A stretch of 64,000 bases of DNA, taken from contig JAKQPK010000050.1 of the NCBI GenBank assembly GCA_029564765.1, positions 82,977 to 146,976 on the forward strand, in the 5' to 3' direction. The stretch's first letter is position 1. Each line of letters starts with the position of its first letter. Positions 5,885-28,876 of this stretch are shown in pieces. The notes beneath the pieces are model-generated. The model searched no databases, had not been told where the DNA came from, and was given only the letters and a program-made list of their open reading frames with translations. The DNA comes from Candidatus Omnitrophota bacterium. Lineage in GTDB: Bacteria > Omnitrophota > Gorgyraeia > Zapsychrales > Aceulaceae. Position numbers and translations under genes: made by a program.

Positions 5885-5886
5885 TC

Positions 5887-6075: not shown

Positions 6076-6247
6076 GTTGCGACTCCGTTTCTATTATAAT
6101 TTTAAATTTAGTTCCTATTATACCAAAATCATAAATTCTTTATCGAAAAATCATTGGACGACAGAAATTTAAGCAAATGATCCTGCTTAATAATAAATAC
6201 TTATTACCTACGCTTCTCGCACCTGCAAGATGCCAAGGAATTCCTTG

Positions 6248-6275
6248 CTTGACAAAGCATGGATTTTTAGTATAC
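6248..6275 (+). promoter_or_regulatory. sigma70-like promoter for rpmB
   Basis: A TTGACA box at 6248-6253, a 16-nt spacer and a TATACT box at 6270-6275. A GGAGA ribosome-binding site lies 5 nt before the ATG at 6301. Confidence 0.45.
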
Positions 6276-6300
6276 TTCTTTTCATCATTTGGAGACATTT

Positions 6301-6525
6301 ATGAAAGTATGCGAAATTTGCGGAAAATCCGCAGCCCCGGGAATTAAATACAAAAGACGTGGTATGGCTGTCCGAAAAGGCGGCGCTGGTCAGAAGATCG
6401 TCGGAAAAACGTTCCGAAGATTCTTGCCCAATCTTCAAAAGATCCGCATCGTTGTAAAAGGACGGATCAAAAGAGCCAATGTCTGTGTCGGCTGTATTAA
6501 ATCCGGTAAGATCACAAAAGCCTAG
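6301..6525 (+). CDS. rpmB: 50S ribosomal protein L28
   Basis: MKVCEICGK…FLPNLQK…CVGCIKSGK matches the L28 zinc-ribbon pattern. The tracked ORF starts upstream at TTG, but the ATG at 6301 with a GGAGA SD is more plausible. Confidence 0.8.
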   Translation: MKVCEICGKSAAPGIKYKRRGMAVRKGGAGQKIVGKTFRRFLPNLQKIRIVVKGRIKRANVCVGCIKSGKITKA

Positions 6526-8215
6526 ATCATCTCTCCCGGCTTAATATCCTTTAGCTCTAATTGCACGGTGGGTTCTTTATTCCAATCGTCGATCGATATC
6601 GTATACGCGATGTCGATCGGTTTACCTTGTGCTACGAGCGGCTGATAAGCCCCCATACCAAAACCTACAGCGGAAATAACAGTTTTCTTGTCCGTGACCC
6701 AAAACTTTAGTGTATCCCTGCCCAAAACGACCGGTGGACTTTTGACGATCAAGTTGCGCGAACAAAACAACGGTTCAGGGTTACCTTCCCCAAAAGGATA
6801 AAGACGATTAACGATCTTGACCAAGTCCAGACTGACGCTGTGCAAAGGGATCTCGCAATCGATAGATAAGCTTGGCTTAAGGTCTTCGTCACTTAACTCA
6901 TCACACGCGATCTGGTTCATTTTCTGGCGAAACGCCTCAATATTCTGTTCGCGGATCGTCAGGCCTGCTGCATGCTCATGCCCACCAAAATCCTCTAACA
7001 AATGCGCGCATCGTGACAACGCGTCAAAAAGATGAAAACCCTCAATGGAGCGAGCTGACCCCGTAGCTATACCATCTTCGATCGACAAGACGATGGACGG
7101 CCGATAATAGGTGTCCATCAGACGTGATGCCACGATCCCTACGACCCCTCTATGCCAGCCGCAAGCCCCCACAACGATCACTCGATCTTTCTTAAAGTTA
7201 ACCTCTTGCTCAACCTTGTGCAAGGCCTCATCAATGATCGCGCTTTGTGTTTCTTGTCTTTGGCGATTATGGGCTTCAAGGGTTGCGGCGATCTCCTCGG
7301 CCTCAGCCTGGTCCTGTGCCATTAAGAGGCGTAAAGATTTTTCCGCGGAATCAATACGCCCCATCGCGTTGATGCGAGGGCCTAAAATAAAACCTACATG
7401 TTTAGGTGTTAATTTCTTCCCCTTGATCCGCGCGGTCTTGATCAAAGCCTGAAGGCCAAAATTCTTTGTTTTTTCGATCCGTGGCAAGCCTTCTTTGACC
7501 AAGATCCGATTCTCCCCATGCAAAGGCACAACATCCGCAATGGTTCCAAGGGCAACAAGATCTAAATCCTGCTGATAATCCTTACCCAAAAGGGCTTGCG
7601 CTAATTTAAAAGCAAGCGCGACAGCCGCTAAACTGCCAAAAGGATACAGGCAGTCTTTGCGCTTGGGGTCGATCACGGCAACGGCTTGGGGGGTCTTCTC
7701 TGATAAGGGCTCGTGATGATCAACAACGATCACATCAATCCCCTCCTGGCGTAATGTTTCGACCTCAGATACCGCGCTGATGCCGCAATCAACCGCCACA
7801 AGAAGACGAACGCCCTGTTCTTTAGCTTCTTTGGCGATCGTATGATTTAAGCCGTAACCGTCCTTGAGCCGATGCGGGATATGATTGACAACATCCAGGC
7901 CAAATTGCTGAAAGGCTCGTGCCAGAACAGCGGATGAGGTCACGCCATCCACATCATAATCTCCAAAGATCATGACCTTTTCTTTGTTCACGCGCGCAAC
8001 TTTAAGCCGCGCAACAGCCTTGTCCATGTCTTTGAGCAAAAATGGGTCATGCAAAGAAGCAAAATTCCCATCAAGAAAATCACGAGCCTCATCAGCCGTC
8101 GAGACTTGCCGATTTACCAGAAGCTGGGCAACGATCGGATGGATCTTCAGTTCATTACTTAAAGCGACTTGAAGCTGCGGGTGCGGGGTCTTGATGATCC
8201 ACTTGCGGGAAACCA
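6522..8215 (-). CDS. recJ: single-stranded-DNA-specific exonuclease RecJ
   Basis: It has DHH and DHHA1 motifs. The start is placed at MVSRKWIIK, directly after the argS stop. The tracked ORF 6522..8420 includes an N-terminal extension that overlaps argS. Confidence 0.9.
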
Positions 8216-9892
8216 TTACATTCTTTCGGGAACGGTAACGCCAAGCAGGGTCAGACCATTGGCAAAAACGATCTTGGCGGCCGCGACAAGGGCTAATCGC
8301 TGGGAAGAAAGCCCTGCATCCTCGCTGATGACTTTGTGCGCGTCGTAAAAACGATGGAACGACGCCGCCAGATCCGTCAAGTAAGCCAATAACGCGTAAG
8401 GGTCGATCTGATGCAAGCACATCGATAGCGCGTCCTCAAAAGAAGCCATTTTTTTGATCAGATCCATTTCTTCCTCTTGGGTCAATAAGCTAAAATTCTC
8501 AACAGCGGATACGATCTTGGCTTCTTTCGCCTTAACAAAAATGCTGTTGATGCGGGCGTGGGCGTATTGAATATAGAAAACAGGATTTTCCGGGCTTTGT
8601 TCTTTGGCCAACTCCAGATCAAAATCTAAATGCGCGTCTGTGTGCCGCATCAAGAAAAAAACACGGGCCGCGTCTGATCCTACTTCGTCAATGACCTCGC
8701 GCAGGCTGACAAATTCCCCTTTACGCGTGGACATTGAGACCGGTTCGCCCTTGCGATACAAAGTCGCCAACTGAACGATAATAACATCCAATTGTTTAGG
8801 GTCATATCCTAAGGCCTGAACAGCGGCCTTCAGGCGCGAAATATACCCATGATGATCCGGGCCTAAAATATCAATGACCCAGTCAAATTTTCGGTCAAAT
8901 TTATTCTTATGATAAGCAATATCCGGGGCGAGATAAGTATAATGACCATCAGATTTCTTAACAACACGATCTTTGTCGTCTCCTAACGCGGTTGTCTTAA
9001 ACCACATCGCGCCATCCTGCGGATAAATATACCCCCGATCGGAAATGACCTTCAGTGCCGCATCGATCGTTTCATTGGTCGCGACCTTAGCTTGTGAGGT
9101 CCAGATGTCAAACTGAACACCAAAATCTTTTAAGTCCTGACGGATCAGCCCCATTAAATATTCTACGGAGAAACTCTCAAATGATCTATCGGCCAGCACA
9201 CTTAAGGCGTCCATATCCGTGATCTTGTTATCCGCGAGAAAGCTTTTGGCCATCTCTTTGATGTATCCACCCTGATAATGATCCTCTGGAAATTCGATAG
9301 TCGCGCCCAATATTTCTTGGGCGCGCAGCTTGACCGAGCGTCCCAAAATACGGATCTGATTGCCTTCATCGTTGATGTAGTATTCCTTGGTGACCTGAAA
9401 ACCTAGAAAGGCGAGGATATTGCCTAGGGCATCACCAACAGCCGCCTGGCGGGCATGCGCCACTGTTAATGGTCCCGTAGGGTTCGCAGAGACAAACTCA
9501 ATGACGACTTTTTTCTTTTGGCTGTCAGAACCCCGGCCAAAATCTTCTTTTGTTTCCAAGATCTCTTTGACAACAGAGAAAAAAGCACCTGAGGCAAGAT
9601 AAAAATTGATAAATCCAGGATTTTTAATCTCTATCTTCTCAACGCAAGCGCCGATCATGGATCGCGCGAGTTGACGGTCGATAGAGACACGTATATCCTC
9701 TGCGATCTGCATCGGGTTTTTTTTAAGCACGCGCGCCAAACGCAGCGCAAGGCTGCAAGAAAAATCACCGTGGGATCTCTCTTTGGTCTTTTCAAGTTCT
9801 GCTGGGGGAATTTCTGAGCAAACATCCTGTAGGAGCTCCTGAACGGATGCTTGGACTGCTTCTTCGAGTTGACGTCTTAGAATGGACAGCAT
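8216..9892 (-). CDS. argS: arginine--tRNA ligase
   Basis: 558 aa. It has a class I HIGH-like motif (PTGPLTVAHAR) and the MSTRKG motif. Confidence 0.9.
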   Translation of the reverse strand: MLSILRRQLEEAVQASVQELLQDVCSEIPPAELEKTKERSHGDFSCSLALRLARVLKKNPMQIAEDIRVSIDRQLARSMIGACVEKIEIKNPGFINFYLASGAFFSVVKEILETKEDFGRGSDSQKKKVVIEFVSANPTGPLTVAHARQAAVGDALGNILAFLGFQVTKEYYINDEGNQIRILGRSVKLRAQEILGATIEFPEDHYQGGYIKEMAKSFLADNKITDMDALSVLADRSFESFSVEYLMGLIRQDLKDFGVQFDIWTSQAKVATNETIDAALKVISDRGYIYPQDGAMWFKTTALGDDKDRVVKKSDGHYTYLAPDIAYHKNKFDRKFDWVIDILGPDHHGYISRLKAAVQALGYDPKQLDVIIVQLATLYRKGEPVSMSTRKGEFVSLREVIDEVGSDAARVFFLMRHTDAHLDFDLELAKEQSPENPVFYIQYAHARINSIFVKAKEAKIVSAVENFSLLTQEEEMDLIKKMASFEDALSMCLHQIDPYALLAYLTDLAASFHRFYDAHKVISEDAGLSSQRLALVAAAKIVFANGLTLLGVTVPERM

Positions 9893-9901
9893 GATCAGAG
9901 A

Positions 9902-10285
9902 TTATGTTGCTACGTTAACGACTTTGCCGCCCTGCCAGAGATATTCCAGGCCGTAAAACTCTCGACATGACTTCTCAAATGTGTGGATCACAATATCACC
10001 GGTATCCACAATGACCCACTTGCCTTCACGGTATCCTTGAACATTGCCAGGACTTAAGCCTGCATCGCGCAAGCCGTCCTGGACACCGTCAGCGATCGCC
10101 CGGACCTGGCGGTCAGACGTTCCAGAGCAAATAACAAAATAATCGCAGAAATTCGCAAGCTTGCGAATATCAAGAACGACAAGATTTTCGGCCTTCTTGT
10201 CCAGAACGAGTTTTGCAATAAGCTTAATTGTTTTCTTTGCAGTTTGTTGGGATTGCTGCGCAATAGAAGATGATGTCTTAGCCAA
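9902..10285 (-). CDS. rsfS: ribosomal silencing factor RsfS (Iojap)
   Basis: 127 aa with typical Iojap/DUF143 sequence. Confidence 0.85.
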   Translation of the reverse strand: MAKTSSSIAQQSQQTAKKTIKLIAKLVLDKKAENLVVLDIRKLANFCDYFVICSGTSDRQVRAIADGVQDGLRDAGLSPGNVQGYREGKWVIVDTGDIVIHTFEKSCREFYGLEYLWQGGKVVNVAT

Positions 10286-11420: not shown

Positions 11421-12728
11421 CTAGAGGAAAAACTTACGTATCCGGCCTTCCTGCTCTTGGGTCACGGGGCCGACTAACGCGAAGTTATATCTTTGGATCT
11501 GAAAAAAATCTCGGGCCACTTTTTGCACATCGGTAAGCGTGACCTGCTCGATTTTCTTGATCATTGCGCGAAATGTCTCGACCTTATCCGTCGCCACGAT
11601 CGACTCCCCGATCCAAAACATATGTTCTGCCGTATCTTCTAAGCCCAACAAGGTCTGGCCGATCACATAATCCTTGGCACGTGTCAATTCGCTTGACGAA
11701 ACTGCTGTCCGGCTGATCCTGGCAAGCTCCTTAAGAATAACGTCCACGGCTTCGACGACTTTTTCATTATGAACACCGCCACGGACCACAAAAGCCCCTG
11801 TATCCTTGAACAACTTCATCCCTGAAGATATCGAGTAAGCTAATCCTCTTTTTTCTCTTACTTCATTAAAAAGACGACTCGACATGTTGCCGCCTAAAAT
11901 AACATTCAAAACTCCTGCCGCGTAACGATCCGGATGCTGACGATGAAGCCCCAAGGACCCCAAGGCGATATGCATCTGCTCGATCGCTTTTGGGAAGATC
12001 TTTATTTTTGGTTTTTGCTGCTGATTCGTTGCCGGGGCGCATGCAATATCACGCTCTTGCGTAAGAGGGCTGAATTTTTTGCTTGTCAACCGCCGTAATT
12101 TTTCATGCGAAATATTTCCACAAGCGGATACCACGATATTTGAAGGCACATAAAAATAGCGATGAAACTGACGCAGATCATGATAGCTCATCTGGCCCAC
12201 AGATTCCAAATTCCCAGCGATGTTCTGCCCCAGAGGATGCTGCGTCCACAGCAACCCTTCCAAGAAATCCATGACCAAATGCTGCGGCAGATCATGATAC
12301 ATCTTGATCTCTTCTAAAATGACACCACGCTCTTTGTTGACATCTTTTTTGCTGATCACAGGCTGTAAGATCATGTCCGACAAGATGTCAAATGTTTTCT
12401 GGGCGTGCCGGGTTGGCACTTTCGCAAAATAACAGGTGCATTCTTCAGAGGTAAAAGCATTAAGAGACCCGCCAACGCCCTCGATCTCTTCTTTGATCGC
12501 GCGGCAAGAATAATTCTTTGTACCCTTAAAAACAATATGCTCTAAAAAATGAGCCGCGCCTTTGATCCTGGCCTCCTCATACCGACCGCCCACGCCAGCC
12601 CAAACGCCGATCGCCACACTATCCCGATCTTTCATCGTATGGCTGATAATACGCAATTTATTGTTCAGTTCTGATCGTTCATACATAGCGCGATAGACTC
12701 CTAACGAATTTTGCCACACAAGCGACAA
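11421..12728 (-). CDS. M16-family zinc peptidase (insulinase-like)
   Basis: Inverted HxxEH zinc motif (AAHFLEHIVFKG). 435 aa. Confidence 0.85.
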   Translation of the reverse strand: MSLVWQNSLGVYRAMYERSELNNKLRIISHTMKDRDSVAIGVWAGVGGRYEEARIKGAAHFLEHIVFKGTKNYSCRAIKEEIEGVGGSLNAFTSEECTCYFAKVPTRHAQKTFDILSDMILQPVISKKDVNKERGVILEEIKMYHDLPQHLVMDFLEGLLWTQHPLGQNIAGNLESVGQMSYHDLRQFHRYFYVPSNIVVSACGNISHEKLRRLTSKKFSPLTQERDIACAPATNQQQKPKIKIFPKAIEQMHIALGSLGLHRQHPDRYAAGVLNVILGGNMSSRLFNEVREKRGLAYSISSGMKLFKDTGAFVVRGGVHNEKVVEAVDVILKELARISRTAVSSSELTRAKDYVIGQTLLGLEDTAEHMFWIGESIVATDKVETFRAMIKKIEQVTLTDVQKVARDFFQIQRYNFALVGPVTQEQEGRIRKFFL

Positions 12729-13470
12729 GATTCTTTTTGTTTTTATTTTTTAGAATCTCTTTCACGATCGCGCTACCAACGATCACGCCGTCGGCGTACC
12801 GCGCGATTTCCCTTACTTGTGCCGGCGTGGAAATACCAAAACCGACACATATTGGCTTTGTGCTTTTGCGCTGAAACGCTTTTAACGCTGCCCTTAAAGC
12901 CTTAGGTAATGCAGTCCGTGCCCCGGTAACTCCCGCAACCGAAACGTAATAAATAAAACCTGTTGAACTTTTGTTAATCAAGGCAACGCGTGTGAAATCG
13001 GTTGTCGGTGCTAAAAAGAAAATGGTTGCTAAATTCACGCGGCGCGCTTGCGCGATCAGGGTCTTGGCTTCTTCCGGTGGTAAATCCGGAATAATGAGAC
13101 CATCCACACCCGCGCGAACAGCTTGCGCAACAAACTCCTTTTCCCCAAAATGAAAAACCGGATTATAGTAGGTCATCAGGCAAATCGGGAGTTCGGTCGT
13201 CGCGCGTAAACGCTTAACGAGCGCGAGGATCTTTTTTAAAGTCACACCCTGAGCTATCGCACGCTGCGACGCTGCCTGGATCGTCGGGCCATCGGCTAAA
13301 GGATCCGAGAACGGAACGCCCAGCTCCACGATATCCACGCCAGATCTTTCAAAAGCCAGGACCAATTTTTCTGTTGTTGTCAGGTCCGGATCACCGGCTG
13401 TGATAAAGGCAATGAAGGCCTTCTTTTTGTTTCTTTTAAGTTGAGAAAATTTTTGATCGATACGGTTCAT
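12679..13470 (-). CDS. trpA: tryptophan synthase alpha chain
   Basis: 263 aa with typical TrpA sequence (…GVDIVELGVPFSDPLADGP…). Confidence 0.9.
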   Translation of the reverse strand: MNRIDQKFSQLKRNKKKAFIAFITAGDPDLTTTEKLVLAFERSGVDIVELGVPFSDPLADGPTIQAASQRAIAQGVTLKKILALVKRLRATTELPICLMTYYNPVFHFGEKEFVAQAVRAGVDGLIIPDLPPEEAKTLIAQARRVNLATIFFLAPTTDFTRVALINKSSTGFIYYVSVAGVTGARTALPKALRAALKAFQRKSTKPICVGFGISTPAQVREIARYADGVIVGSAIVKEILKNKNKKNLVACVAKFVRSLSRYV

Positions 13471-13477
13471 AAATTTA

Positions 13478-13694
13478 ATTCAAAAGTCAAAATTCAAAAG
13501 TCAAAACGAAAAGATTTCAGAAGCTAAAATTCAAAAGTATGAAGATTTTTTGAGCTTAAAAACGCAACGAATGCAATGGGCTCAATGAACTAAAATTATA
13601 TCTCATTCTACGCTTTAATACACAATGTTTTGATTTTTGGTTTAATAAATCAACCTTCTGCTTTGAATTTTTATTTTTGAATCTTGACTTTAAA
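13478..13694. repeat. MITE-like intercistronic palindromic element, family 1, copy A
   Basis: The terminal inverted repeats are built from tandem units: the left end reads AAGTCAAAATTCAAAAGTCAAAA and the right end TTTTGAATCTTGACTT. The right end is identical to that of copy C. It fills the trpB-trpA gap. Confidence 0.55.
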
Positions 13695-14868
13695 TAATGT
13701 CCTTTATTGACTGCACATCCTTGTCCCCTCGCCCGGAAAGACACACGATCACGGTCGAATTCTTTTTAGCACGCTTAGCAAGTTTTTCCAAATAACCGAT
13801 CGCGTGCGAGGATTCCATCGCGGGGATAATCCCTTCGGTCTTGCACAAAAGCTTCATCCCGGCAATAGCTTCCTTGTCATCGACAGCAACATATTCCGCA
13901 CGCTTGATCTTTTTGTAATAAGAATGTTCTGGCCCAACGCCTGGATAATCCAGCCCCGCGGCGATCGAATGCGCCACCCGCACCTGGCCGTCACTATCTT
14001 GTAACAGATCGCTCTTGCTGCCATGAAGGACACCGGCTGTCCCACGATTCAACGGCGCGGAATGCTTGAGCGTATCAAGCCCTAGACCTGCCGCTTCCAC
14101 ACCGATCATCTTTACGTTCTTATCCGAGAAAAACGCGTGAAAAAGCCCCATCGAATTACTGCCGCCGCCAACGCACGCCAAAAGATAGTCCGGCAAACGT
14201 TTTTCTGCCTGCGCAAACTGCCTCTTGGCTTCTTGTCCGATCACAGATTGGAATTCACGCACCATCACGGGATAAGGATGTGGCCCAGCCACAGAACCGA
14301 TCACATAAAATGTGTTCGCCACATTCGTTACCCAATCACGGATCGCTTCGTTCATTGCGTCTTTTAAGGTCTTTGAACCGCTTGTGACAGGAACAACCCT
14401 GGCTCCTAAGAGTTTCATACGGTAAACATTCAACGATTGACGCTCAATATCTTCCGCGCCCATATAAATATCGCAGCGAAGCCCAAAAAGCGCTGCCACT
14501 GTCGCGGTCGCCACGCCATGCTGGCCGGCACCGGTCTCCGCGATGATCCGCGTCTTGCCCATACGCTTGGCGATCAGGATCTGACCTAAGGTATTGTTGA
14601 TCTTGTGGGATCCGGTATGCAAAAGATCTTCACGTTTAAGATAAACCTTGAGTGTCTTCAGTTGCGCGCTTAAGCGCTTGGCCAGATAAAGATTGGTCGG
14701 CCTGCCGGCGTATTCCTGCAAATAAAAGCGAAATTCTCGCTGGAATGCTGCGTCTTTGCGCAGGCGAACGAACACGCGCTCAAGATCCGCCAAAAGCGTC
14801 ATGAGCGTTTCTGGTACATAACGCCCGCCGAACTCATCAAAATGGCCAAATTTATCGGGTTTTGTCAT
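13690..14868 (-). CDS. trpB: tryptophan synthase beta chain
   Basis: 392 aa. PLP-Lys context (HTGSHKINN) and GGGSN motif. Confidence 0.9.
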
Positions 14869-14880
14869 ATATAGTTTAAA

Positions 14881-14954
14881 GGGTTAAAGGATTTGAGGAT
14901 TTGAGGATTAAAGGGCTCTCCCTTTTCCCCTATAATCCTTTACCCCTCTACCCC
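14881..14954. repeat. long imperfect hairpin built from tandem AAAGGATT/TGAGGATT units, family 2, minimal copy
   Basis: Left arm GGGTTAAAGGATTTGAGGATTTGAGGATTAAAGGG, loop CTCTC, and a right arm that is its reverse complement. It lies between the stop of ORF 14954..15745 and the trpB start. Confidence 0.5.
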
Positions 14955-15745
14955 TACTTTTTCTTATATTCCGTCATGATCATACTTGTGCCGCCGATCA
15001 TCGCAGGCTTGTCAATGCGCAACGGTAATCGATCTGGGCTGTCGTCGAACCAAAGCCGATATTGCGAAGGCACGGTTTCAAGAAAAAAGGTTTGAAAATC
15101 TTTACCAGCCACGGATAGTGGCATCTTTTTAGCGATCCTGACCGACACATCCTTTGTCGGTAGATTCATCCGCAAAGATGATCCTAAGCGAAAACTGCCT
15201 TTCAACCGATACCGATAAATAAAACAATAGATATTATCAATCTTATCTTCTTTGGTCAATACAAGAACCTGCGGTTGCGGCTTGGCCTTTGTTGTTTTCG
15301 TAATTGTCACCGTATGCTGATCCTGATCGTAAACTTCAACGATCTTTTCGATCGACCCAAAAATATTCAGATCTCTTTCGATGCGCAACGGAAAGAACTC
15401 CTCATGATCCGCGTAGATCTTTTCGGCGTCTAGAAAGTTCGATCCTTGAGCCTGAAAAAGGATCAGATAAGCTTCCCGCCCATCGATCGTAGTCCGGCCC
15501 TGCAATGTCATAGTCGCATCGGCCTGCTTAACGCCAAGGCCGCGCACATCATAGCGGATCGTTTCGCCGATAAAACGGCCATAGCCTGCGTCCTGGGCAA
15601 AGGCAAAACTTGGGCTAAAAAAAACCAAAAAGCAAGATATAAGGCACAAGCAGGCCAGAAAATACAACCTCCAAAGACCAAAGACTTCTCTTGGCTTGGT
15701 CATTGCTTGGTTGTTGCCTACTGTATCTTGATCATTCATTTCCAT
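14954..15745 (-). CDS. hypothetical membrane or secreted protein
   Basis: 263 aa with an N-terminal hydrophobic segment. No confident family assignment. Confidence 0.5.
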   Translation of the reverse strand: MEMNDQDTVGNNQAMTKPREVFGLWRLYFLACLCLISCFLVFFSPSFAFAQDAGYGRFIGETIRYDVRGLGVKQADATMTLQGRTTIDGREAYLILFQAQGSNFLDAEKIYADHEEFFPLRIERDLNIFGSIEKIVEVYDQDQHTVTITKTTKAKPQPQVLVLTKEDKIDNIYCFIYRYRLKGSFRLGSSLRMNLPTKDVSVRIAKKMPLSVAGKDFQTFFLETVPSQYRLWFDDSPDRLPLRIDKPAMIGGTSMIMTEYKKK

Positions 15746-16866
15746 TCTTTCACAAATCTCTCCAACACCTTTGCGCCCTTATACAGCTTCTCAACATGCG
15801 CGTATTCATCGGTCGCATGCGCGGTTTTGCGGCTGCCATAGCCTGTGGCGATCGCCGGGATCTTTTTCTTCTGGAAAAATGTGATCACAGTAGCGCCCTG
15901 ACTGCCCTTAAGCTCCACAGGACATTTGAGCGCGCGGCAGGCGTTGACATAGGTCGAAACCAGCGGATGCTGTTTATCGATCTCATAGGGGTATTGCAGG
16001 TCATCTATGATAATTTTAAAACGTTTCGCGTGTTTTCGTACCAAAGCCTTGATGGCGACCAAAAGTTTCTGCGGGTCCATACCCGGTAAAAATCTCAGGT
16101 CAAAGGAAAGCTCACAGAAATCCGCGACCATATTTACCTTGTCCCCGCCCTTGATCGTCCCAATGTTGATCGTTGGCGGACGTAAAAGCGCATGAGGGTG
16201 ATAAACAAATTTAAAGTTCTTTAATTCTTCAATAATGCCTGTGGCTGCTTCGATCGCGTTTACGCCGTACCACTTGTAAGCGCCGTGCGCTTTCTTGCCA
16301 AAAACTTGAACTCGGGCGTGCATCAAGCCTTTTTGGGCGATGATCGTTGAAAATTCATCAGAATCCAAGATCAAAGCGGCCTTCGGCTTCAGCATCCCTT
16401 TATTGAGCAACGGAACGATCCCCTGTTTGCTGCCAGTCTCCTCATCTACCGTCGCGGCCAAGACCACATCATGCGAAAGTCGAACACCGTCCTCGACTAA
16501 GCTGCGCATCGCCTCCATCGCGCAGGCGAGATTTCCTTTATCGTCCGTGGCCCCTCGACCATAAATACGGCCATTTTTAATTTGCCCGCCAAAAGGATTC
16601 ATGGACCATCCTGTACCTGCGGGAACGGTATCAATGTGCGGTGTCAACAAAAGCGCGTTCTTTGCTGACGCTTTAGATGTCCCTTTTAAAGTCGCGATAA
16701 TGTTGGGACGATCCTTCGCGAAGGTCACGACCTTGACTGCAAGGCCCAAGGAGCGCATATCACGCTCGATAAAACGTGCAAGTGCAAGTTCATTGCCCGG
16801 CGGATTCTCTGAATTAAACCGCAGAACTTTTTGGGTCAACTTAATAAGGCGAGATTTGTTGATCAT
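15736..16866 (-). CDS. M20-family metallopeptidase (ArgE/DapE-like deacylase)
   Basis: 376 aa. It has conserved metal-binding His and Asp residues and the GRGATDDKG motif typical of M20 peptidases. Confidence 0.8.
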   Translation of the reverse strand: MINKSRLIKLTQKVLRFNSENPPGNELALARFIERDMRSLGLAVKVVTFAKDRPNIIATLKGTSKASAKNALLLTPHIDTVPAGTGWSMNPFGGQIKNGRIYGRGATDDKGNLACAMEAMRSLVEDGVRLSHDVVLAATVDEETGSKQGIVPLLNKGMLKPKAALILDSDEFSTIIAQKGLMHARVQVFGKKAHGAYKWYGVNAIEAATGIIEELKNFKFVYHPHALLRPPTINIGTIKGGDKVNMVADFCELSFDLRFLPGMDPQKLLVAIKALVRKHAKRFKIIIDDLQYPYEIDKQHPLVSTYVNACRALKCPVELKGSQGATVITFFQKKKIPAIATGYGSRKTAHATDEYAHVEKLYKGAKVLERFVKEWK

Positions 16867-16867
16867 G

Positions 16868-17138
16868 ATAAGTCAAAATTCAAAAGTCAAAAGTTTAGGA
16901 TTGAACAACAAAAATCAAAACTCAAAAATTTAAGATTAAAATCAGAATGCAAAAACTAAAACAACGGTACCAGAATTCATGCTGATAGCTAAAAAATTTT
17001 TTATAGGATTTCTTGAATATACTTGCCTGATTCTTTTTATTTCAGGGTTCTTGATATGCTGTACTTTTAATTTTTGACTTTAAAAAATCAGCCCTGTGGT
17101 CTTTAATTTTGACCTTTGAATTTTGAATCTTGACTTAT
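16868..17138. repeat. MITE-like intercistronic palindromic element, family 1, copy C
   Basis: About 26-bp TIRs: ATAAGTCAAAATTCAAAAGTCAAAAGT on the left and the reverse complement of ATAAGTCAAGATTCAAAATTCAAAGG on the right. It exactly fills the gap between the stop codon of ORF 17139..17444 and the start codon of the M20 gene. Confidence 0.6.
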
Positions 17139-17444
17139 CTAGTCCTTAAATAAATCCTCAGCCCGCAAAGCGCCCGTGGCTTTCTTATAGTCATCATAAT
17201 CTAGAACGCACATGCCTGGATTTTGCTCAATGATCCTGATGATCTTTGGCATATTACCTATCAAGCTGCGAAAGGTGATATATTTAAACGGTGTTTTACA
17301 TTCCGGGCAGACGGTAGAATCAAGCTTTAAGCCCATAGCATTACACTTAGAGCAATTGGCGGTCAGATCGCCGCACAAAAGCGCGTGGCTTTTGACCTCT
17401 TCCACATAAAATTTTTTATAAATTCTAATCACTTTATCGTTCAT
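17139..17444 (-). CDS. small zinc-ribbon protein (two CxxC pairs)
   Basis: 101 aa with CSKC…CPEC. No known family. Confidence 0.5.
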   Translation of the reverse strand: MNDKVIRIYKKFYVEEVKSHALLCGDLTANCSKCNAMGLKLDSTVCPECKTPFKYITFRSLIGNMPKIIRIIEQNPGMCVLDYDDYKKATGALRAEDLFKD

Positions 17445-17476
17445 AGATGAAAAATTATAACATAAAATATATTAAG

Positions 17477-17612
17477 TTGTAAGCTGTAAGTTATAAGTTG
17501 TCCGTTGCCAGCAAAAAGGGCCCCGCAGAAATCCTGCGGGGCCCTTCTCACACCCCTATCATTGACATCTTACATCTGACACCTTACATCTTATGCCTTC
17601 TATATCTTACAA
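17477..17612. repeat. palindromic element built from tandem GTAAG/CTTAC units that flank a central terminator hairpin
   Basis: Left arm TTGTAAGCTGTAAGTTATAAGTTGT. Right arm CATCTTACATCTGACACCTTACATCTTA…CTTACAAC, which overlaps the stop of the giant gene. Confidence 0.45.
17511..17544 (-). terminator. rho-independent terminator of the giant gene
   Basis: On the minus strand an 11-bp GC-rich stem (GGGCCCCGCAG/CTGCGGGGCCC) with a 5-nt loop is followed by TTTTTGC. It lies about 65 nt after the stop at 17607. Confidence 0.7.
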
Positions 17613-20600
17613 CAAGCCCACCTGCGCGTACTCCTCGGCAGGCAAAGCAGGTTCTGCGGGCCGGCCGATAAGTTCTCGATTATCAGAGCCTCTCACCTTG
17701 TTGCTGGGCGTTCCCGCATCCAAGCCGGAGAGCAAAAACAAACTCGCCACAGGCGTGATACCCATGATCTCAAAGGTAAAGCCTTGAATATTCATCAGCT
17801 CTGGCGGCTGCTGCGATATCGGCAAAGGAATTCCGTTTCCGTCACGCTTGATCTGCAGATCCAGCGTCTTAGAATCCATGCTGATACCGCCGAGGTTGGA
17901 GGAAGATTTTCTTTGTTTTTCCAAAACAAAATTATAAATATCCCCAATATTAACCTCATCATACTCTTGTATCTCCATGGACTCCTTAGGAATGATCTGA
18001 GCATGGTTCGGAAGAAGCCGCGAATTAATATCCACGATCATGCGAGCGATCTCGACTGAAGTCATCTTTAAATCATCTCTTAGCTTTGTCGCCAACGTGA
18101 CATTATCTGTTTTTACAACAGAGAATTGTTTTATGATACTAATAACATTTTCAAGCATCTTATCGCTCGTGGTTATAGTTTTTAAAAGAAAATCTAAGCT
18201 TGTTATGCTTCGATGCTGATTCAATCCTGCGATCCGAAATTCTTTTCGTATTGAATTAGGGTGGCTCACACGAACTGTCATTAGGCCAGAGATGTTCTGA
18301 TAAAATAAAACATGGGCCTGCTCGTGATCATCCTGCTTACTATTATAGAACACCAAAAGAACACCATTGACATCCTTGTTGATGTTATCTTCATCTGTGA
18401 TCTGTGTTAACTCGTCTTTAAATGAATCGAGGTCGGCATACTCGTCAATGACGTTCTCATTCTTGTCTGGAACCAATTTTACCAACTCATACCCTTCTTC
18501 CCTCGCAAGGTCAACCATATGATCAATAACGGCAAAAAAGTCTTTCCTGGTCAAGCTCGACGACACAACTTCAAGCTTTTCTTTGATCTTAACTTCAACA
18601 TCTTCTTGCCGCTCCCCTCTGTTTCGAACCAAAAAGCCTTTGTCGCCTTCGCCTTGCTCTGTTTTTCTAACGGCTATCGAAACACCTTTTTCGGTATCAG
18701 TCAAGATAACGACATTCAGCTCTTTTCCCTCTTGCGCATCAAAGGTAAACAAAAGAGAATTGTCCATAGGAGAGTCCGTATCCACCAAATTTTGATGAAA
18801 GATATCCGAACCGTCAAGATCGTAATCCAACCCGTTCCACAAAAAAGACTCGACTTTTTCGCCCATTACATCCTCAACTGCCATGACAGCATCGAGAATG
18901 CTTGCCGTGGGCAAAGACTTGATGATCGTCGACTGAACTCCGTCAAAAGCGAAAGGACTTGTACTTTTCTCGCTCGACCCTGAAGACGTTGTGACTGCGT
19001 CCATAGCCTTAAGCACGGAAAGAGCCTGGGCCAAAAATTTCTGATCGGGAATATTGAGCTCGTCGCCTAAATCCATAGCCTGGTATGCGTCAACGACCAC
19101 AGAACCATTTTCAAGCTTAAATCTAAGGACATCGCCCCAAACGCGATCATTATAGTGAAATTGCAGGCTTATCTGACGCGTCTTAGGATTTCTAAACGTC
19201 ACACGCTGCGCGTCCATAGCGCTGAGGTTGCCCGACGATCCGCCATCAATATCAACATAATTAAAGCTGACTCTGTCAGCACTAATCTCTTTTTGCAAAG
19301 TATTGGCAAGCTCTTCAATTGAGAAATTCTCCGGAAGAACAGCCTTGACGCCCGATGAAGCACCGATAGGGGCTTTCTTGCTCAGGCTAGAGGAACTTGC
19401 TGTTTTCAAAAAGTTGTCCTCTGAGAGCTCAGAAAGAACAGCCGCCACCTGATCCTTAAGCCTGAGGTCTATGGTCTCGATTTTGACGACCTTTCCCTGC
19501 TGAACTAAAAAATGAATATTGCCCATATTTTTATTCAGTTCGCTAGAAATGGAAAAATCAACAGCTTCAGGATCACTGGTCCTGGAAGCAGCATAATCAA
19601 ATTGTCGAGCAACGGCATAATAGCCGATCTTAAAATCAAGCGTTCGCAGGCCAATCTTTTCGCCTAATTTCTCAAGGAATACGCGCAAATCATTACTGAT
19701 CTCTGTTAATTTAAAATCCTTGATGTTTCTTTTTCCTGTGCTCGATTCGCTTTTGACAATTTCTTCGTTATTCTCTATCTTCACCGTTGATGAGAAATTC
19801 TCCGATAAAAACCTCCCGAGATCCGGGACAATTGTTTGCTTAGCGAGCTCCAGAAGTTCAAGATCTTCATTCGGCGTTGCGCCATAAACAGGGGCTGACT
19901 TTGCCCTGATCTCAACACTGCCATCTGGCTGACGCTCAAAGCTTACGACCCAATAAGGTTTAAATCGTTCATATGTCTTCGTAAACTTTATTGTTATTAA
20001 CCCGTTAAAACCACCAAAATTACCCTCGCCTAGTCGTGGGCTGTATATAATCTCGTCTGTTCCCAGATAGTTCTCAATAGTATTAGAAAAATCTCTAAAT
20101 AAATCTTCGATAACGTCCGAAGCCTTCTGACTCATGGCGGTTGGTGTTTCATCAAGCGGCTCGCTCCTTGCCATTGACAAAAAATGTCCCGCAGGAAGAT
20201 TTTGGCGGATCCGGTCGATATCCTCTTGACCTGCGCCAAGAGTTGCAAATCCAGGCCGGACGCCAACAACTTCCCCTCTCTCAAGATCAATCACGACTCT
20301 ATTGGCTGTCCACAAGATTTCAATAGATTGCATGTCTGATTTCTCCTGAACCAAGCCATCTAAAGCATGAGCAACTTCTTCTCTGCTTTCACGGATCTGT
20401 TTGGTGGAGTAAAAATAATAAAAGCTTACCCCATCAAAAATATTTACTGCGCGCAACTCCCTGACACCCAGCTGATCAAGAAATTCAAGGAGCTGATGTC
20501 TGAATTCTCCTGGCATTAATTCGCTTAATTTAGCCGGCGCTGTCGCCTGCGGCGCATCAACAACCCCAGGCTCCTGACTCATGGACTTTAAGATATCTGT

Positions 20601-23600
20601 TGCCAGACGTAACAAGCCTTCGTCATGATTCATTTCACCAGCGGAATTCTGAAATTCTGCTTCTATCTCAATCATCTCGTCCTCAACCTGACGAAGCACG
20701 ATCATATAAGATACATTCTTCGCAGGTTTATGCATAGCCCTATAATCCATCTTATTTTGAGATGAAAAGGAAAATATCACATTTTTTCTCCAGTCAAAAT
20801 CGAGACCGGTGTCGATCAAAAGCTTGCCCTTTGTAGCATCTAGGATTCGCTTAGAAAATTCCTGAACATCAAATTTTGCCCCTTTGAAGCTCACCCTTTC
20901 TTTACGCGAAACGATATCCGCATCATACGGGATCTCTGTCTCGGGCTTAGACGTTTCGGATTTAACTTCTGCCCTCTTTTCTTCTGGAGCGGTGGACAAA
21001 AAGTTTTCGGCTGACAATATATATCGCTGCAGAACCGCTTTCTCATGTTCACGAAATTTTTTATCAAACACCGAAACTTCAGTGACTTTCCGCGTAAATT
21101 CCTCAAAGCTGACAATGATTCTAAAATCCTCTATCTCGAATTGCATAGTGCTTATCGTATCTCCAAAACGCTCCCGAAACGCATCTACAGCATCCGCTAT
21201 CTGAGCTCCGAGCAAAGCATTGTAAGAACGAAAACTATTATTGAAATTACGAATTTCTATAGTTTGCAGCTTTGCATTCCGGTCGAATACCGAAAGAAGC
21301 TCTTTGACATCGCGCTGAATCTTTGCGGAACCTGATGGCAAAAATCCTCTTTTTGCTGACGCTGTTTTGCTCACCTCCGAAACAACAGGTTTTTCCTCCA
21401 GATACCTTTCTAACCCTAAAGTTCGCTGTGCCGGTTCCCCAGAAGGAACACCATCAATATACGTTACAGCTGGCACCTCTTTTTTCTCCAGCGCGGTAGA
21501 AAAAACATTTTCTGATGATAATTTTGAACGGTCAAATCCCGGCAGGCGCATTCCCTGCTTATCTTTTACATGAACATGAATAATTTGTTGCGTGCTCTTG
21601 CTTACAGAGATCTCGATCGAATAAGTCCTAAAAGTAAGCACGATCCCTTCAAGCTTTTGAGTAACAAGCATGCTAAATTTTTCTTTAAATCGATCTATGG
21701 CATCTTTTAGTTTCAACTTGTTGGCATCATAAAGCATGGCAGGGTTAAAAATCTTTATAGTTTCCATCTTTTCTTCGCGCCCGATGATCGAGATGATCTC
21801 CTCAACATCTCGCTGGATCTTTGCAGAATCTGACGGCCAATATCCTCTTTTTTCTGAAACTACCGATTTAACTTCCGCAGCTTTCGGTGTCACGCTAACA
21901 ACAGGATCGCGATAAGAAAGATCCTTGCTCACCAGATAAATATAACTTCCATCTTGAAACCTGATCTGATACGCGAGAGGCTTGCCAGGCCTAGAAAGCC
22001 ACTGATCGATCTTATCTTTCTCAAGAATAGAATGTTGTTCGATATCGATAAAAACTGCCTTTTCTCTGGCAGATAGATCCTTGATCTTTTGTACAGCTCT
22101 TTCTTTTGAGAAATTAGCAGAGATCTGGTCAACGGCTTGCCAATTTTTTTCTTGAGATCCTGACACGACCTTAAGGTAGCTTTCTCGGTCACGCGATGAA
22201 CCCAGGCGAAAATTTCTTTTATCCATAAGGATCGGCGCTATGCGCGCGGCAACTGTTTCTGTTTGCGAAAAAGTCGTTCGCACTTTGTTCGCATCAATGA
22301 TCGCGCGCTTACCCTCATAGCGGACGTTGAGATAATAAGAAGTGCCATTTCCCAATTCTAACCTGATTGATGCTACTGGTTCACGAAGATCAAGGTCTTG
22401 CCATGGGGCTTTTGGATTTGTCACACTGACTCTTTGATATCCGCCAGAACGCAATTTAACGCCCATCGTGCCAACGTCTGATCTTTCATCCTGCATAATA
22501 CGCGTGATCGGGCTGATCAGCTGCTGGCGTGTGATCACACTTGAAGACGCGCTAGAAGTAGGCATCTTTTCAATGATCTCTTTCGCTTTGCGCGCGATAT
22601 TATCCTCTGAAACAGCATCAAAATTCTGCTTTTTGTCATTCCATACAAAGCGTAATGCTGTGATCGATAAGAAAAGGTCATATTGATCGATCATAATTTG
22701 AGTTAAAGGTGAATTTCTGTTTTGTTCCCAGAATTTTACAATCAACCTCTGTCCTGATCCCAAATTCTTTTCACTAAAGAATTCGGTAAACCCAGGCTCA
22801 TGCTCAAGATAAGAACTATCGTTCCATTCCACAGACCATGTCTTGTGTGGGATCCCCTTCCTGAGCGCCATGATCGCTTCATGCGCGTTCAGCGTTCCCG
22901 CAGCACGTTTGATTACTGCAAGGGATGAGGACATTCTCTTATGCTTAGATTTTTGATCATAAGATCGATACATTTTTCCATTCTCGCTTAAGCGCAAGAA
23001 AATCTGTCCATTCTGATCGAATGCATGCATCGTAACCGGCAACTCTGTTTCTGACCATCCATAATAATAATCCCGAAAGTCTAAGCCGTAGTACTCTTTC
23101 TCGCTTTCAGACAGTTGCTGTGATTCTGCATGCCAAACCGCGGTAATAAACGGTTTGATGTTTCCATCCTGGTCAGTTCCGGAGATAAAATAAGGATCCG
23201 CCTGATACTCTTTGATAAGCACAGCGGCAACTTCTCGACCAGTGGTAGCTGGGATCGAAGCCAGCGTAGAAGAAACCGACTGAGTCGGGGCTACCAACAA
23301 ATCTGTCCCGCTTCCGTCAATATCAACTCCTACATAAACAATCGTCACATTATCAAGGATCAAATGCCCATCGCTGCCACGCTTGAGAATACCTTTGTCA
23401 AAATAATGCTGATATTTCGCCTTTGATAGAAGCTCATCCAGGTTAATTTCTTGATCCGTATCGTTACGCAACTCAACCGTTCCAATGTATTCTGGTTTGT
23501 TCAGAGTCCACTTCCCTGCCACATAAAGAAGATCCAGATCCAGCGTTTTTGAACCCAGCGGGAGAATTTTGTAAGCGTTCACCTTGTTTTTCTGATAGTA

Positions 23601-26600
23601 ATCTTCGTAATTTTTGGAAAATTCGAATCGCGCCAAGTGGCCTGGCTTATTATTTTTCATAGCCCATTCTTTAGTATCCATGGCAAAATGCTCGGATAAA
23701 TAATAATTCCAATCCAAAGCAAACTTAACTGGCGTAAAGCATAGCTCACGATACTCAGGTGTAAAATTCACGATGTGCAGCAAGCGCGTCCATCCATACT
23801 TTTTCATCAGGTCTTTTACCTTCTGATTTTCTGTATAGCGCACATGATAATCGAGATTCTGAAGAACATGGCCCAAGGCGCCTTCGATCTGATAGATCGT
23901 CCCGCCCTCTTTTGGATTATCAATGAAGGTTGGCGATGTCCACTGTACATACTGTTCATGTCCAATGATCTTTTCCAGTTCACGCAAAAATGGCTGAAGC
24001 ACAGTTTCGTTAATGCCCATAATGTTGGTATTAAAGAACTGTTCACCTTCCTGGCCTGCTTCCTCGATCGCGCCAGCAGTGAGGCCGATCTTTTGAAAGA
24101 GCTCGCCCTGGCCAACCTTGCCAGCCTGGACAGTTTCCATCATATTGATACGGGTATTCTCAGCAGTAAGATCCTGCAGCAAAAGGCCATCCTCGACAGG
24201 CTGAGCACCAACCTTCCCACCTTTTTTATCTAATTCCATGGTTGTCGATGATAAAAGAACCATGGGGATCTTGTTGGACGCCATCCAGCCTAAAACAACA
24301 GATGGGATTTGATTGTTTGGACCGTCCCCATTAGTAATATCGCGGATCACCACTTTGTCTTCTGGTAAAATGTCAGTAAGAACTTCTTCAAAAGCCATTC
24401 GTCCAAAAACACCGTGTCCGCCTGGAGAAGTTTTGCGATCGGTCAACTCTCCGGTTACCACATCCACAACAGGCTGGATCGCCTGAACGACCATATCTTC
24501 ATCGAATCTAATGCCTTGCAACCCTCTGACGTATTGAGCATAAGTGCGCTTTTGGCCTTCGGGGATACGATCATCGATCTTATCAAGAAGGCAAATGTGT
24601 TGATTGCGAAAATCTGAAATAGGACCGACCGTATCTTTACTGACAAGCTCACGAATGCTGGCGTGCGCAACACGGCCTTCTTGAGCGGTAATGATGTTGT
24701 GGACATATTTCACATCTAAAATACTGAACTCCACATCCTTGAAAACCTTAGGGTTGCCATCCTTATCAAACCCTTGAAGTTCTTGGACAAACGTCAAGGC
24801 CATGGATTTCGCCCCGACTCCTCCCACAGAAGTCCCTGCTCCGCCGTTCATAAAATCAATGCGATGGTCAACATTCTTAGCAGCCTCAAGATACTTCTTC
24901 TCCTGCGATAAGATCTCTGTTGCGAAATCCGTCGCGTTCATGATCTCTTTCATTTTTGACTTAGGGATCATAGAATTTGGGAAGAAATTCTGGCCGATCA
25001 CCAGATCATTCACGATCCCTTTTTGCTTATCGACCATTTGCTGATTATATTGAGAAACGAGACTTGCGAAATAATCTCTGTTAAAAGTGCTGCCAGGATT
25101 ATCCATGCCTAATTTTTTGACAAACGGATCGATCTCTTCTTTTGAAATGGTACGAATGCTCGAAGACACAGCTTCTTCTTTGTCTTCTGCCAGCGGCATC
25201 CCCTGTGACACGAACTCCCAGAAATCCGCTTTTTTGGCTCGATGAAGAACAACATAGCCATCACGGATAAACATCTTTACCGTCAAAGGTTCTCTGGCGT
25301 CTTGCGGTATAGAAGCAATCTTTTCAGCCATGAGACTTTTACTGTTAGGCCTATAAAACTCTGTTTGCTTGATATCGTCGCTTGTTAACCTTAGAGCCAT
25401 ATTTTCCGCGACGATCTCTGTTGCCATTTCTTTTAAATCCACATTGGCGCGAAACTTAGGGACATTGATGGAACCGCCCAGCTCATTCCATCTGGCTCCT
25501 TCATCCTTAAAATTAAATCCTTGACCGTAAAACTGCGTTATCTTCCATCGGCTATTTGCTGTGTCTTTGGCAAAGATCAAAGAAGTTCTGTCTTTAAAGA
25601 ACATCGTAACCTTCTTGGCTTTTGGCAAAATAACGCTTAGACGGCCTGAAGCCTGCGGGTCGCTCAAAGAAAATCCGTAGGAATATCCTTCCTCTGTGAG
25701 AATATTGAAACTTAAAAGCACTTTCCCTGTCAACTCGAGCTTGGACGTGATCTCGCGTAAAAGAACAGATGCTGGCTCTAAAGACGATACCCTTGAGATG
25801 ATCGCCGAGGCGGAAACGCCTGTTCCCCACTTTACCTCTATATTCCATCTATTACGGTCGATGCGCGTAAGTACTATTTGTTTATTCCCGTTTTCATCAT
25901 AATAAACTTTAATTCTCGCAACTTTCCTTTCTGGCTTATCATCTAAGAAAGTGCTCTGCATCTCAGACCTGTGTCTGCCACTCCACCCCCCAGTATCGTA
26001 TTCTGCATAAACATAAACATAATCACCGCCATATTGTCGAGCGATTGCTTCCAATGCACTCCATCCTGCATCATGCCCGGGAGCTTCTATCGCCGAGGCG
26101 GAGGATCTGTTATCATCTTCACTTTTCAATAGCTTAGCATCAAATCTCGTTGCACTTCCCTTTGTTTGCAATTTATCTGCGGATGGAGTGACCTTTTCTA
26201 GAGCCTGACGCAAAGGGGTCCCGTCAGGAGTAGTTGGCGTGAAACCGCCAGAAAAATACTTGCGGGGAATGTTCTTTCCCGTATGCTGATCCCTCTCAAC
26301 CTTGATAAAATCATAGATGCCTTTTTGAAAAGCATTCAAATAATCCTCGTAGATCTTTTGCTTTTCAGAGCTATCCACAAGATCAATGCCTTTTATCTTA
26401 TTCTGATCCATGTAGATCTTGCCAAGCAAGCTTTCCTTTAGATTGTTCTTATACCAAGTGGCCAGGATCATCGCGTAATAGACCTGCCTTAGGCTCGCAA
26501 AATGCTTTCCGAAGTTCACTTCTTTTTCGATGGCCGGAAGAACAATTTCACGGACGATCTGAGAAGAAAGAGAACTGGTCGTTAGTATTTGGTCGCTAGT

Positions 26601-28849: not shown

Positions 28850-28876
28850 AAAAGCTCCTTAATAAAGATTTGGAAT

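Follow-up and report, generated by a model that had tools for sequence, protein, structure and literature searches.

The subject of this analysis is a pair of short inserts, here called el1 and el2, in a 64,000-nt stretch of the genome of a Candidatus Omnitrophota bacterium (GenBank assembly GCA_029564765.1, contig JAKQPK010000050.1); this whole 64-kb stretch is referred to as the window. All genes of the region, like both inserts, are on the minus strand, in agreement with the genes called on the 293-kb source contig (ENA ERZ795025 NODE_16). In transcription order, a gene for a giant protein is followed by a 101-aa open reading frame (ORF), genes for an M20 peptidase and a DUF3108 protein, trpB, trpA and an M16 peptidase gene (Table 1). 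The trpB/trpA junction is made up entirely of el1, bounded by the trpB stop codon (13690-13692) and the trpA ATG (13468-13470), and the junction between the 101-aa gene and the M20 peptidase gene entirely of el2, bounded by the stop codon of the 101-aa ORF (17139-17141) and the M20 ATG (16864-16866). Both lie in sense orientation within the operon 101aa-M20-DUF3108-trpB-trpA-M16 and have a GC content of 26-28%, as against ~45% for the window. The el1 sequence is the same, base for base, in three independent assemblies, which excludes an assembly artefact. The feature is real and consists of hairpin-forming junction inserts gained during evolution.

Table 1. Positions in the window of el1, el2, their arms, the surrounding genes and related features.
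Feature	Coordinates	Strand	Remarks
3239-aa giant gene	17607-27326	-	first in transcription order
101-aa ORF	17139-17444	-	3' of giant gene
el2, entire 101-aa gene/M20 peptidase insert	16867-17138	-	272 nt, 28% GC
el2 5' arm: G-ATAAGTCAAGATTCAAAATTCAAAGGTCAAAATTAAAG	17101-17139	-	stem score 48, 0/200 shuffles
el2 3' arm: AAAC-TTTTGAC-TTTTGAA-TTTTGAC-TTATC	16867-16896	-
M20 peptidase gene	15736-16866	-	3' of 101-aa ORF
DUF3108 gene	14954-15745	-	3' of M20 peptidase gene
trpB	13690-14868	-	3' of DUF3108 gene
el1, entire trpB/trpA intercistronic insert	13471-13689	-	219 nt, 26% GC
el1 5' arm (sense): ATTTAA-AGTCAAG-ATTCAAA-AATAAAA-ATTCAAAG	13661-13695	-	stem score 41, 0/200 shuffles
el1 3' arm: (TTTTGAC TTTTGAA)x2 then TTAAAT	13473-13508	-	period 7, 3.9 copies
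trpA	12679-13470	-	3' of trpB
M16 peptidase gene		-	last in listed order, 3' of trpA
Shine-Dalgarno (SD)-like AAGGA in last trpB codons	13700-13704	-	4 nt 5' of stem base; putative function
SD-like AAGGA in last codons of 101-aa gene	17143-17147	-	3 nt 5' of stem base; putative function
Best promoter-like site of the region	17454-17483	-	TG-TATAAT, 10/12 matches, few bases 5' of 101-aa ATG
DUF3108/trpB gap, GGGTA/AAGGATT vs AATCCTC/TTAACCC units	14869-14953	-	0/200 shuffles
Cassette 3' of giant gene, TAAGATG-type vs CAACTTA-type arrays	17445-17606	-	0/200 shuffles
AGGATTA/AAGGGTT arrays and complement	27982-28182	-	stem score 49, 0/200 shuffles
CAATGAC/GTCATTG arms	28850-28993	-	1/200 shuffles

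On the sense strand, an A-rich arm starts at the upstream stop codon (TAA-AGTCAAGATTCAAAAATAAAAATTCAAAG in el1, TAG-ATAAGTCAAGATTCAAAATTCAAAGG in el2) and a complementary U-rich arm leads up to the downstream start codon (...TTTTGACTTTTGAATTTTGACTTTTGAATTAAATTT-ATG and ...TTTTGACTTTTGAATTTTGACTTATC-ATG, respectively). The 5' arm of el1 begins within the last codons and stop codon of trpB and its 3' arm ends 2 nt 5' of the trpA ATG, while in el2 the first base of the 5' arm is the G of the TAG stop codon and the 3' arm runs to the last base before the M20 ATG. Both arms are common to the two elements: AAGTCAAGATTCAAAA (16 nt) occurs with 0 mismatches at 13675-13690 and 17121-17136 on the minus strand, AAGTCAAAATTCAAAAGTCAAAA (23 nt) is found at 13484-13506 and 16870-16892, and the arms are identical down to the same G variant. 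Allowing up to two mismatches, the arm motif has 10 matches in the window, all of them in the el1 and el2 gaps, where 0.33 would be expected. An earlier reading made from the letters and ORFs of the window (the sequence-only reading) had described inverted termini with identical right ends, and these identities bear it out; its element coordinates were also right to within a few bases. The arms themselves are tandem heptamers of the AAGTCAA/AATTCAA type, paired with their complement and free of any internal dyad, with a period of 7 reported by TRF at 13480-13506, 16873-16954 (11.9 copies) and 17105-17133; el2 is double-layered, with another pair of arrays, of degenerate heptamers, nested within it. 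The same reading's statement that the interiors are non-homologous holds for the central ~100 nt, which are unrelated between el1 and el2, and fails for an inner block, TGATTT(A/T)TTAAA..CAAAAAT(C/T)AAAA, which is common to both with a score reached by 0 of 300 shuffles.

Terminal stems of 26-35 bp close the two elements, with scores above all 200 shuffles in each case. The arm duplex energies of el1 and el2 are -31.7 and -40.3 kcal/mol, and their whole-element RNA folds have z-scores of -2.2 and -3.3, in agreement with the stable long hairpin that had been anticipated. In the predicted fold the closing stem has a mean pair probability of 0.68-0.77, the arrays end 0-8 nt 5' of the ATG, and the ATG lies 0-2 nt outside the stem, adjacent to the hairpin rather than embedded in it as originally proposed. 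No SD-like 4-mer is present at positions -20 to -4 of the trpA and M20 start codons, as had been noticed from the outset, while 21 of the 48 window genes possess one.

Comparison with orthologous junctions in related Omnitrophota (loci L124, L126, L128, L210, L211 and L212) revealed that, among relatives with TrpA identities of 81-66%, gene order has been kept and the junctions differ. The 219 nt between trpB and trpA in the window correspond to 91 nt without arrays in L124, to a single nucleotide in L126 and L210 and to overlapping genes in L212; the same junction holds 307 nt with CAATGAC/GTCATTG arms and no ORF in L128, and 283 nt containing a palindrome that resembles repetitive extragenic palindromic (REP) sequences in L211. 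Similarly, the junction of the 101-aa and M20 genes, 272 nt long in the window, is an overlap in L212 (ATGATTAA), and is occupied by 143 nt with CCTAAG/CTTAGG arms in L124, by 671 nt with CAATGAC-type arrays around a truncated PF05635 ORF in L128, by an intact 132-aa PF05635 gene in L210, and in L211 by a gene for a Y1 transposase resembling REP-associated tyrosine transposases (RAYTs; 224 aa, Y1_Tnp) and flanked by REPs. This L211 protein scores 68 bits against NCBIfam REP_Tyr_transpos, below the cut-off of 80, and the REP-like palindrome on either side of its gene, CGAATTCAACCTACGAGGTTGAACGCGGTT, is found in at least four gaps of that locus (within 5173-6597 and 9718-10000). Conserved synteny with empty or overlapping junctions indicates that the ancestral state was a compact, overlapping operon. 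The claim that the inserts exactly fill zero-length junctions is thereby upheld, given that relatives have a 1-nt gap or overlapping genes at these sites, and the pattern of presence and absence fits a gained element. The junctions have, in short, been colonised repeatedly by different small elements.

The ORF enclosed by such arms matches PF05635 (23S_rRNA_IVP) and TIGR02436 ('four helix bundle protein'), an Avd-like family; it is not a transposase, and the nearest solved structure to its product is 2rld. Three Bacteroidota loci recovered through the AAGTCAA motif carry a PF05635 gene between an A-rich array and its T-rich complement. In one of these (L084), with AAGTCAA/AATTCAA arms, the TAA of nuoK is followed by GTCAAAAGCCAAAATTCAAAATTAAAA, by the ATG, ORF and TAA of the enclosed gene, and then by CACTTTTGAATTTTGATTCTTGAATTTTGAATTTGAAAA and the ATG of nuoL, while in the other two (L102 and L015) the ORF within the AAGTCAA arms is degraded. 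A search of metagenome contigs for relatives of the PF05635 protein gave 80 loci, of which 66 non-redundant ones were tested. In nearly every one of 23 loci read by eye, inverted heptamer arrays run right up to the stop and start codons of the neighbouring genes; the heptamer unit differs from locus to locus, with AAGTCAA-type arms recognised by eye in L131. When the 120 nt upstream and downstream of each gene were compared by pair-scored local alignment (threshold score of at least 30), complementary flanks were obtained for 65% of cognate pairs, compared to 19% of non-cognate pairs and 5% of shuffled sequences; duplex folding of 160-nt flanks was uninformative, non-cognate controls being likewise very negative. 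Strong periodicity of the flanks is seen at lag 7 only, with a trace at lag 8, and is absent from the ORF and from more distal segments, and 26 of 43 loci have an arm that abuts a same-strand stop codon, 29 of 43 one that abuts a same-strand start codon. Furthermore, homologs 73-81% identical to the L210 gene are located at unrelated junctions in other Omnitrophota (SBP/permease, giant/ABC2 and CNNM/CNNM) and have in common a conserved 3' arm, GGACATTCATTCGTCATTGGGATTTGGTAATTG, found as well in copies that lack the ORF (such as L128 trpB/trpA and window 28850-28993). The recurrence of one arm and gene unit at unrelated junctions indicates that the cassette moves, or is transferred, as a whole, with ORF-less derivatives.

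Three further observations concern these four-helix-bundle cassettes. In L215 (3924-4676), a CAATGAC/GTCATTG cassette with its gene lies inside outer TATCAG(T/A)/CTGATA(A/T) arrays, a nesting that would arise either if cassettes insert into existing hairpins or if arrays are added in layers. In L137 (~1851-1990), the 3' heptamer arm is followed within ~15 nt by a tRNA-like gene (GGGTAGCTCAATGGCAGAGC...), so that cassettes may also adjoin RNA genes. Contigs with close homologs of the gene are mostly 0.5-3 kb long, which fits multi-copy repeats that break short-read assemblies.

We propose, with a probability that we put at roughly 60%, that el1 and el2 belong, as members without an ORF, to a widespread class of cassettes located between cistrons that are gained and lost, that resemble the intervening sequences (IVSs) of rRNA, and whose full-length members enclose a PF05635/TIGR02436 gene. 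A cassette of this class would comprise a 7-nt-unit array that starts from the upstream stop codon, a variable AT-rich interior and a complementary array that reaches the downstream start codon, and it would be acquired and lost at those operon junctions at which the two codons had overlapped to begin with.

A different origin was suggested by the sequence-only reading, which regarded the two inserts as a family akin to miniature inverted-repeat transposable elements (MITEs) and likened them to insertions of REPs or bacterial interspersed mosaic elements (BIMEs), or of MITEs. As classical MITEs or REPINs they would be non-autonomous DNA transposons whose mobilisation in trans would depend on a transposase or RAYT able to recognise their terminal inverted repeats (TIRs). 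Such an origin would account for the inverted termini, for two identical-ended copies 3.4 kb apart and for presence and absence at orthologous sites; moreover, arms that are common to ORF-less and ORF-bearing versions mimic a non-autonomous/autonomous pair, and in L211 a RAYT-like gene with its own REPs occupies the very junction that el2 occupies in the window. We nevertheless consider it unlikely. No target-site duplication was found at the flanks of either element (...ATTATTTAA and ATGAAC for el1, ...GGACTAG and ATGATC for el2, without a direct repeat), their central regions are unrelated, and the sole ORF found in such cassettes encodes a four-helix-bundle protein instead of a transposase. 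No Y1 transposase appears near el1 or el2 in the source-contig gene calls or the ORFs of the region, the window proteins not having been scanned with Pfam. The L211 REP is unrelated to the heptamer arms, which are tandem repeats of variable copy number common to several phyla. MITEs are likewise short and AT-rich, with TIRs, ORF-less and ORF-bearing versions that have the same ends, and insertion polymorphism; here, neither a target-site duplication nor a transposase-bearing parent was found, and conservation between copies is limited to the arms and sub-terminal blocks. REP/BIME and REPIN-RAYT systems are similarly extragenic, co-transcribed and hairpin-forming within operons, with a RAYT at the same junction in L211, but REPs are self-palindromic units of 20-40 nt for a Y1 transposase, whereas the arms of el1 and el2 are non-palindromic and unaccompanied by a RAYT gene. 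"MITE family" is thus not the best description of the inserts, and the original interpretation was partly right.

The arms are not a private feature of this operon. A degenerate pattern fitting all four el1 and el2 arms, applied to GTDB species representatives, matched at least 120 stretches from other taxa; among the matches listed, most are from Chitinophagaceae and Sphingobacteriales (Bacteroidota), with others from filamentous Cyanobacteria, Chlorobi, phyla of the candidate phyla radiation (CPR), Acidobacteriota and another Omnitrophota genome. Thus, of the "~26 bp TIR" originally described, the inverted termini stand, and the notion of a private TIR gives way to arms of tandem 7-mers. Array orientation among the listed matches is biased, with 92 arrays that are A-rich after a stop codon or T-rich before an ATG compared to 24 of the opposite sense, and about half are paired with a complementary array downstream, the loop being usually <60 nt. 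As a separate observation, AAGTAAA/AAGTCAA-type arrays lie within ~130 nt of the start of four contigs (L039, L067, L098 and L112) of a metagenome-assembled genome labelled Citrobacter freundii S2_003_000_R2_13; these are unexpected in an enterobacterium and may represent mis-binned contigs or chimeric ends.

Another possible origin is that the arrays are heptanucleotide microsatellites, built in place in AT-rich spacers by replication slippage and made symmetrical by template switching within quasi-palindromes, in which case the elements would be neither mobile nor functional. In favour of this, heptamers are reported to be more common than any other long simple repeat of prokaryotes (Mrazek 2007, summarised in PMC4679880), indels between strains occur in 7-nt steps, the stems have no G-U bias and many arrays are unpaired. 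Slippage leaves unexplained how 219-272 nt came to lie at junctions that measure 0-1 nt in relatives, why two junctions have identical arms with the same variant and a shared inner block, why the match between cognate arms is far better than that between non-cognate arms, why near-identical units of arm and gene recur at unrelated junctions, and why the arrays have an orientation bias, and we therefore view this origin as very unlikely.

A function in cis would offer a reason for the orientation of the arrays relative to genes. According to this possibility, the U-rich array would bind a single-strand RNA-binding protein (S1, Csp or CsrA-like) and drive or control SD-independent translation, with its A-rich partner serving as an anti-sequence or forming part of a terminator. 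In Beggiatoaceae, Cyanobacteria and Bacteroidetes, TAACTGA heptamer repeats lie 1 nt 5' of start codons without an SD, and a translational role has been proposed for them (MacGregor 2015, PMC4679880). Both trpA and the M20 gene lack an SD, and arrays flank GC-rich terminator hairpins in other genomes as well as at 17445-17606 of the window. On the other hand, el1 and el2 contain no terminator-like hairpin, across cassettes the arms are symmetric in composition and stop-codon content, the heptamer varies by junction within one genome, which is hard to fit to one sequence-specific binder, and both the enclosed gene and the history of gain and loss would remain without explanation. Taken as the reason for these inserts, cis-regulation appears quite unlikely.

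Under the cassette interpretation that we favour, el1 and el2 would be transcribed along with the operon. Promoter-like and terminator-like matches in 13300-17700 are no commoner than in shuffled sequence and none falls inside el1, which rules out an internal promoter or terminator by this measure and makes co-transcription of both elements with the operon likely; nor does either contain an intrinsic terminator (a short GC-rich hairpin followed by a U run). The best promoter-like site of the region, whose TATAAT 5' of the 101-aa gene is conserved in L124, L128, L210, L211 and L212, is judged from its sequence to be the likely start of the transcript carrying el2 and el1. This extended -10 site (TG-TATAAT) ends ~7-12 nt 5' of the 101-aa ATG and the 101-aa ORF has no SD; with a promoter so near the start codon, the operon mRNA may be leaderless or nearly so. 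A known RNA family was ruled out for el1 and el2, as Rfam gave no match at E <= 1 in 13400-17700, and no tRNA or tmRNA was seen either.

Within such a transcript, pairing of the arms is predicted to give a ~26-35 bp stem, with the interior looped out and the stop codon placed beside the start codon, and this juxtaposition may be what allows the insertion to be tolerated, by one or both of two routes. In the first, by analogy with rRNA IVSs, RNase III would cut the long stem, removing the interior and separating the cistrons. In the second, specific to the window, the closed stem would restore the original geometry and bring an upstream AAGGA to ~3-6 nt from the AUG. On the el1 side this AAGGA corresponds to the AAGGAG inside the end of trpB that presumably serves trpA in the empty-site relatives L126 and L210, where the trpB/trpA junction measures 1 nt; on the el2 side relatives have AAAGA. 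The 101-aa gene ends TTT AAG GAC TAG in the window, TTT AAA GAC TAA in L124 and L210, and TTT AAA GAT TAA in L128, so that, relative to these three, the SD-like AAGGA by the stem base results from a synonymous change of AAA to AAG and is present in the el2-bearing genome only.

Several results weigh against the proposed class and its RNA-level mechanism. SD-like motifs occur within 16 nt 5' of the 5' arm in 29% of cassettes compared to 10-19% (~16%) of controls, a difference that is not significant; we consequently dropped a general "split SD" rule and retain it as a local observation on el1 and el2. Wobble pairs in the stems show no sense-strand bias (G-U versus A-C, 66/65 in 43 PF05635 cassettes and 17/10 in the window), and the minimum free energies of sense and antisense folds are equal. 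Selection on the sense-strand RNA, as might have been read from wobble pairs, was accordingly rejected, and the symmetry may instead originate and be maintained in the DNA itself. In other genomes, the majority of AAGTCAA arrays lack a partner or fold as simple hairpins with a loop of <60 nt, and are not cassettes. Finally, a six-frame search with a 61-sequence PF05635 HMM, which returned 3e-41 for its positive control, detected no remnant in el1, el2, the other window cassettes or the whole 64-kb window (E > 0.7). A PF05635 gene remnant was thereby ruled out as the interior of el1 and el2; what links them to the gene-bearing cassettes is their architecture, the sequence of their arms and a shared site, and not interior homology, and in the absence of an ORF or detectable remnant we file them as ORF-less members and not as demonstrably decayed copies. 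A further proposal, that a period of 7 gives stop codons in all frames before the ATG, is true of el1 and el2 and was dropped as a general rule (159 versus 164 stops in 5' and 3' arms).

Among the closest known counterparts of these cassettes are the IVSs of 23S rRNA. That of Coxiella burnetii contains an S23p ORF and has a 28-bp terminal stem that is cut by RNase III in its middle, and the 23S IVS of Leptospira and the IVSs of Salmonella are likewise reported to be removed by RNase III (PMC4990558). As in the IVSs of Coxiella and Leptospira, an AT-rich interior is closed by a stem of ~28 bp between complementary ends, a four-helix-bundle ORF of PF05635 with no obvious ribosome-binding site lies inside (for el1 and el2, in the cassettes of relatives), the distribution is sporadic with a horizontally acquired look, and the insertion would be tolerated as the stem restores local structure. 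Unlike them, the cassettes are situated between protein-coding cistrons and not in helix 9, 25 or 45 of 23S rRNA (no rRNA occurs in the 64-kb window, and el1 and el2 lie between protein-coding genes), their arms are tandem heptamer arrays, and el1 and el2 have no ORF or detectable remnant. The heptamer arrays recall a second group of repeats. Cyanobacterial STRR heptamers are a related kind of intergenic repeat, and both STRR and TAACTGA arrays resemble those described here in being tandem 7-nt units that end a few bases 5' of SD-less starts, vary in copy number in 7-nt steps and occur in scattered phyla (Cyanobacteria, Bacteroidetes and others). Arrays of the el1/el2 type differ from TAACTGA heptamers in unit sequence and in forming complementary pairs that bracket an insert. 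The hairpins cut by RNase III in phage T7 early mRNA, and those that bridge the "split" ribosome-binding sites of phage T4 genes 38 and 25, are also similar in that an intercistronic stem is cut to separate mRNAs or loops a distant SD to the AUG; these are short, local and fixed in the phage genome, unlike gained cassettes of 220-270 nt, and the analogy is functional only. The TAACTGA study reports 169 sets of direct repeats and a single indirect one, and the terms "intervening", "four helix" and "S23" appear nowhere in its text (PMC4679880). A full-text literature search, incomplete in coverage, returned no paper that ties PF05635 genes to heptamer arrays or describes operon-junction cassettes, and the class is probably novel.

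More tentatively, inverted heptamer-array cassettes, with or without a PF05635/Avd-like gene, could constitute a single widespread class of selfish operon-junction elements (in Omnitrophota, CPR, Bacteroidota, Cyanobacteria and Chlorobi), of which 23S rRNA IVSs would be a special case that landed in rRNA; we hold this broader view to be possible and somewhat less probable than its opposite. If it is true, the defining trick of the class would be transparency at the RNA level, in that the arms re-join the flanks, by RNase III excision or by stem-mediated juxtaposition of the SD, stop and start codons, with no polarity between coupled cistrons or within an rRNA helix. Much of the excess of heptanucleotide repeats in some phyla would then be the footprint of these elements, and one explanation would cover the abundance of heptanucleotides, the origin of rRNA IVSs and the orphan "four helix bundle/23S rRNA IVS protein" genes, of which there are thousands across CPR, Omnitrophota, Bacteroidota and Cyanobacteria. 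It would also mean that there is a way to insert 200-700 nt between overlapping, coupled genes such as trpB and trpA with expression retained. In practical terms, cassettes probably break metagenome assemblies, and SD-less starts can mislead gene callers. The class to which el1 and el2 are assigned is the more interesting result.

Other gaps of the window share this architecture. All 12 of its intergenic gaps were read and their terminal stems compared with 200 shuffles each; in six, including those of el1 and el2, the stem score was reached by at most one shuffle, and the remaining six were at chance. Each of the six is built on 7-8-mers, and the four besides el1 and el2 use other units (Table 1). 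The gap between the DUF3108 gene and trpB is of the AGGATTA/AAGGGTT type, like the cassette at 27982-28182, which lies directly 3' of the stop codon of the gene at 28181-28849. The arms at 17445-17606 enclose a GC-rich terminator-like hairpin, and the CAATGAC/GTCATTG arm family of 28850-28993 encloses a four-helix-bundle gene in related Omnitrophota. Just downstream of the 27982-28182 cassette, within the 854-nt leader of the 3239-aa giant gene, we also identified a c-di-GMP-I-GGC riboswitch aptamer (RF03167; 27757-27912, minus strand; 61.7 bits against a gathering score of 59), whose position suggests that this giant protein of Omnitrophota is under the control of c-di-GMP.

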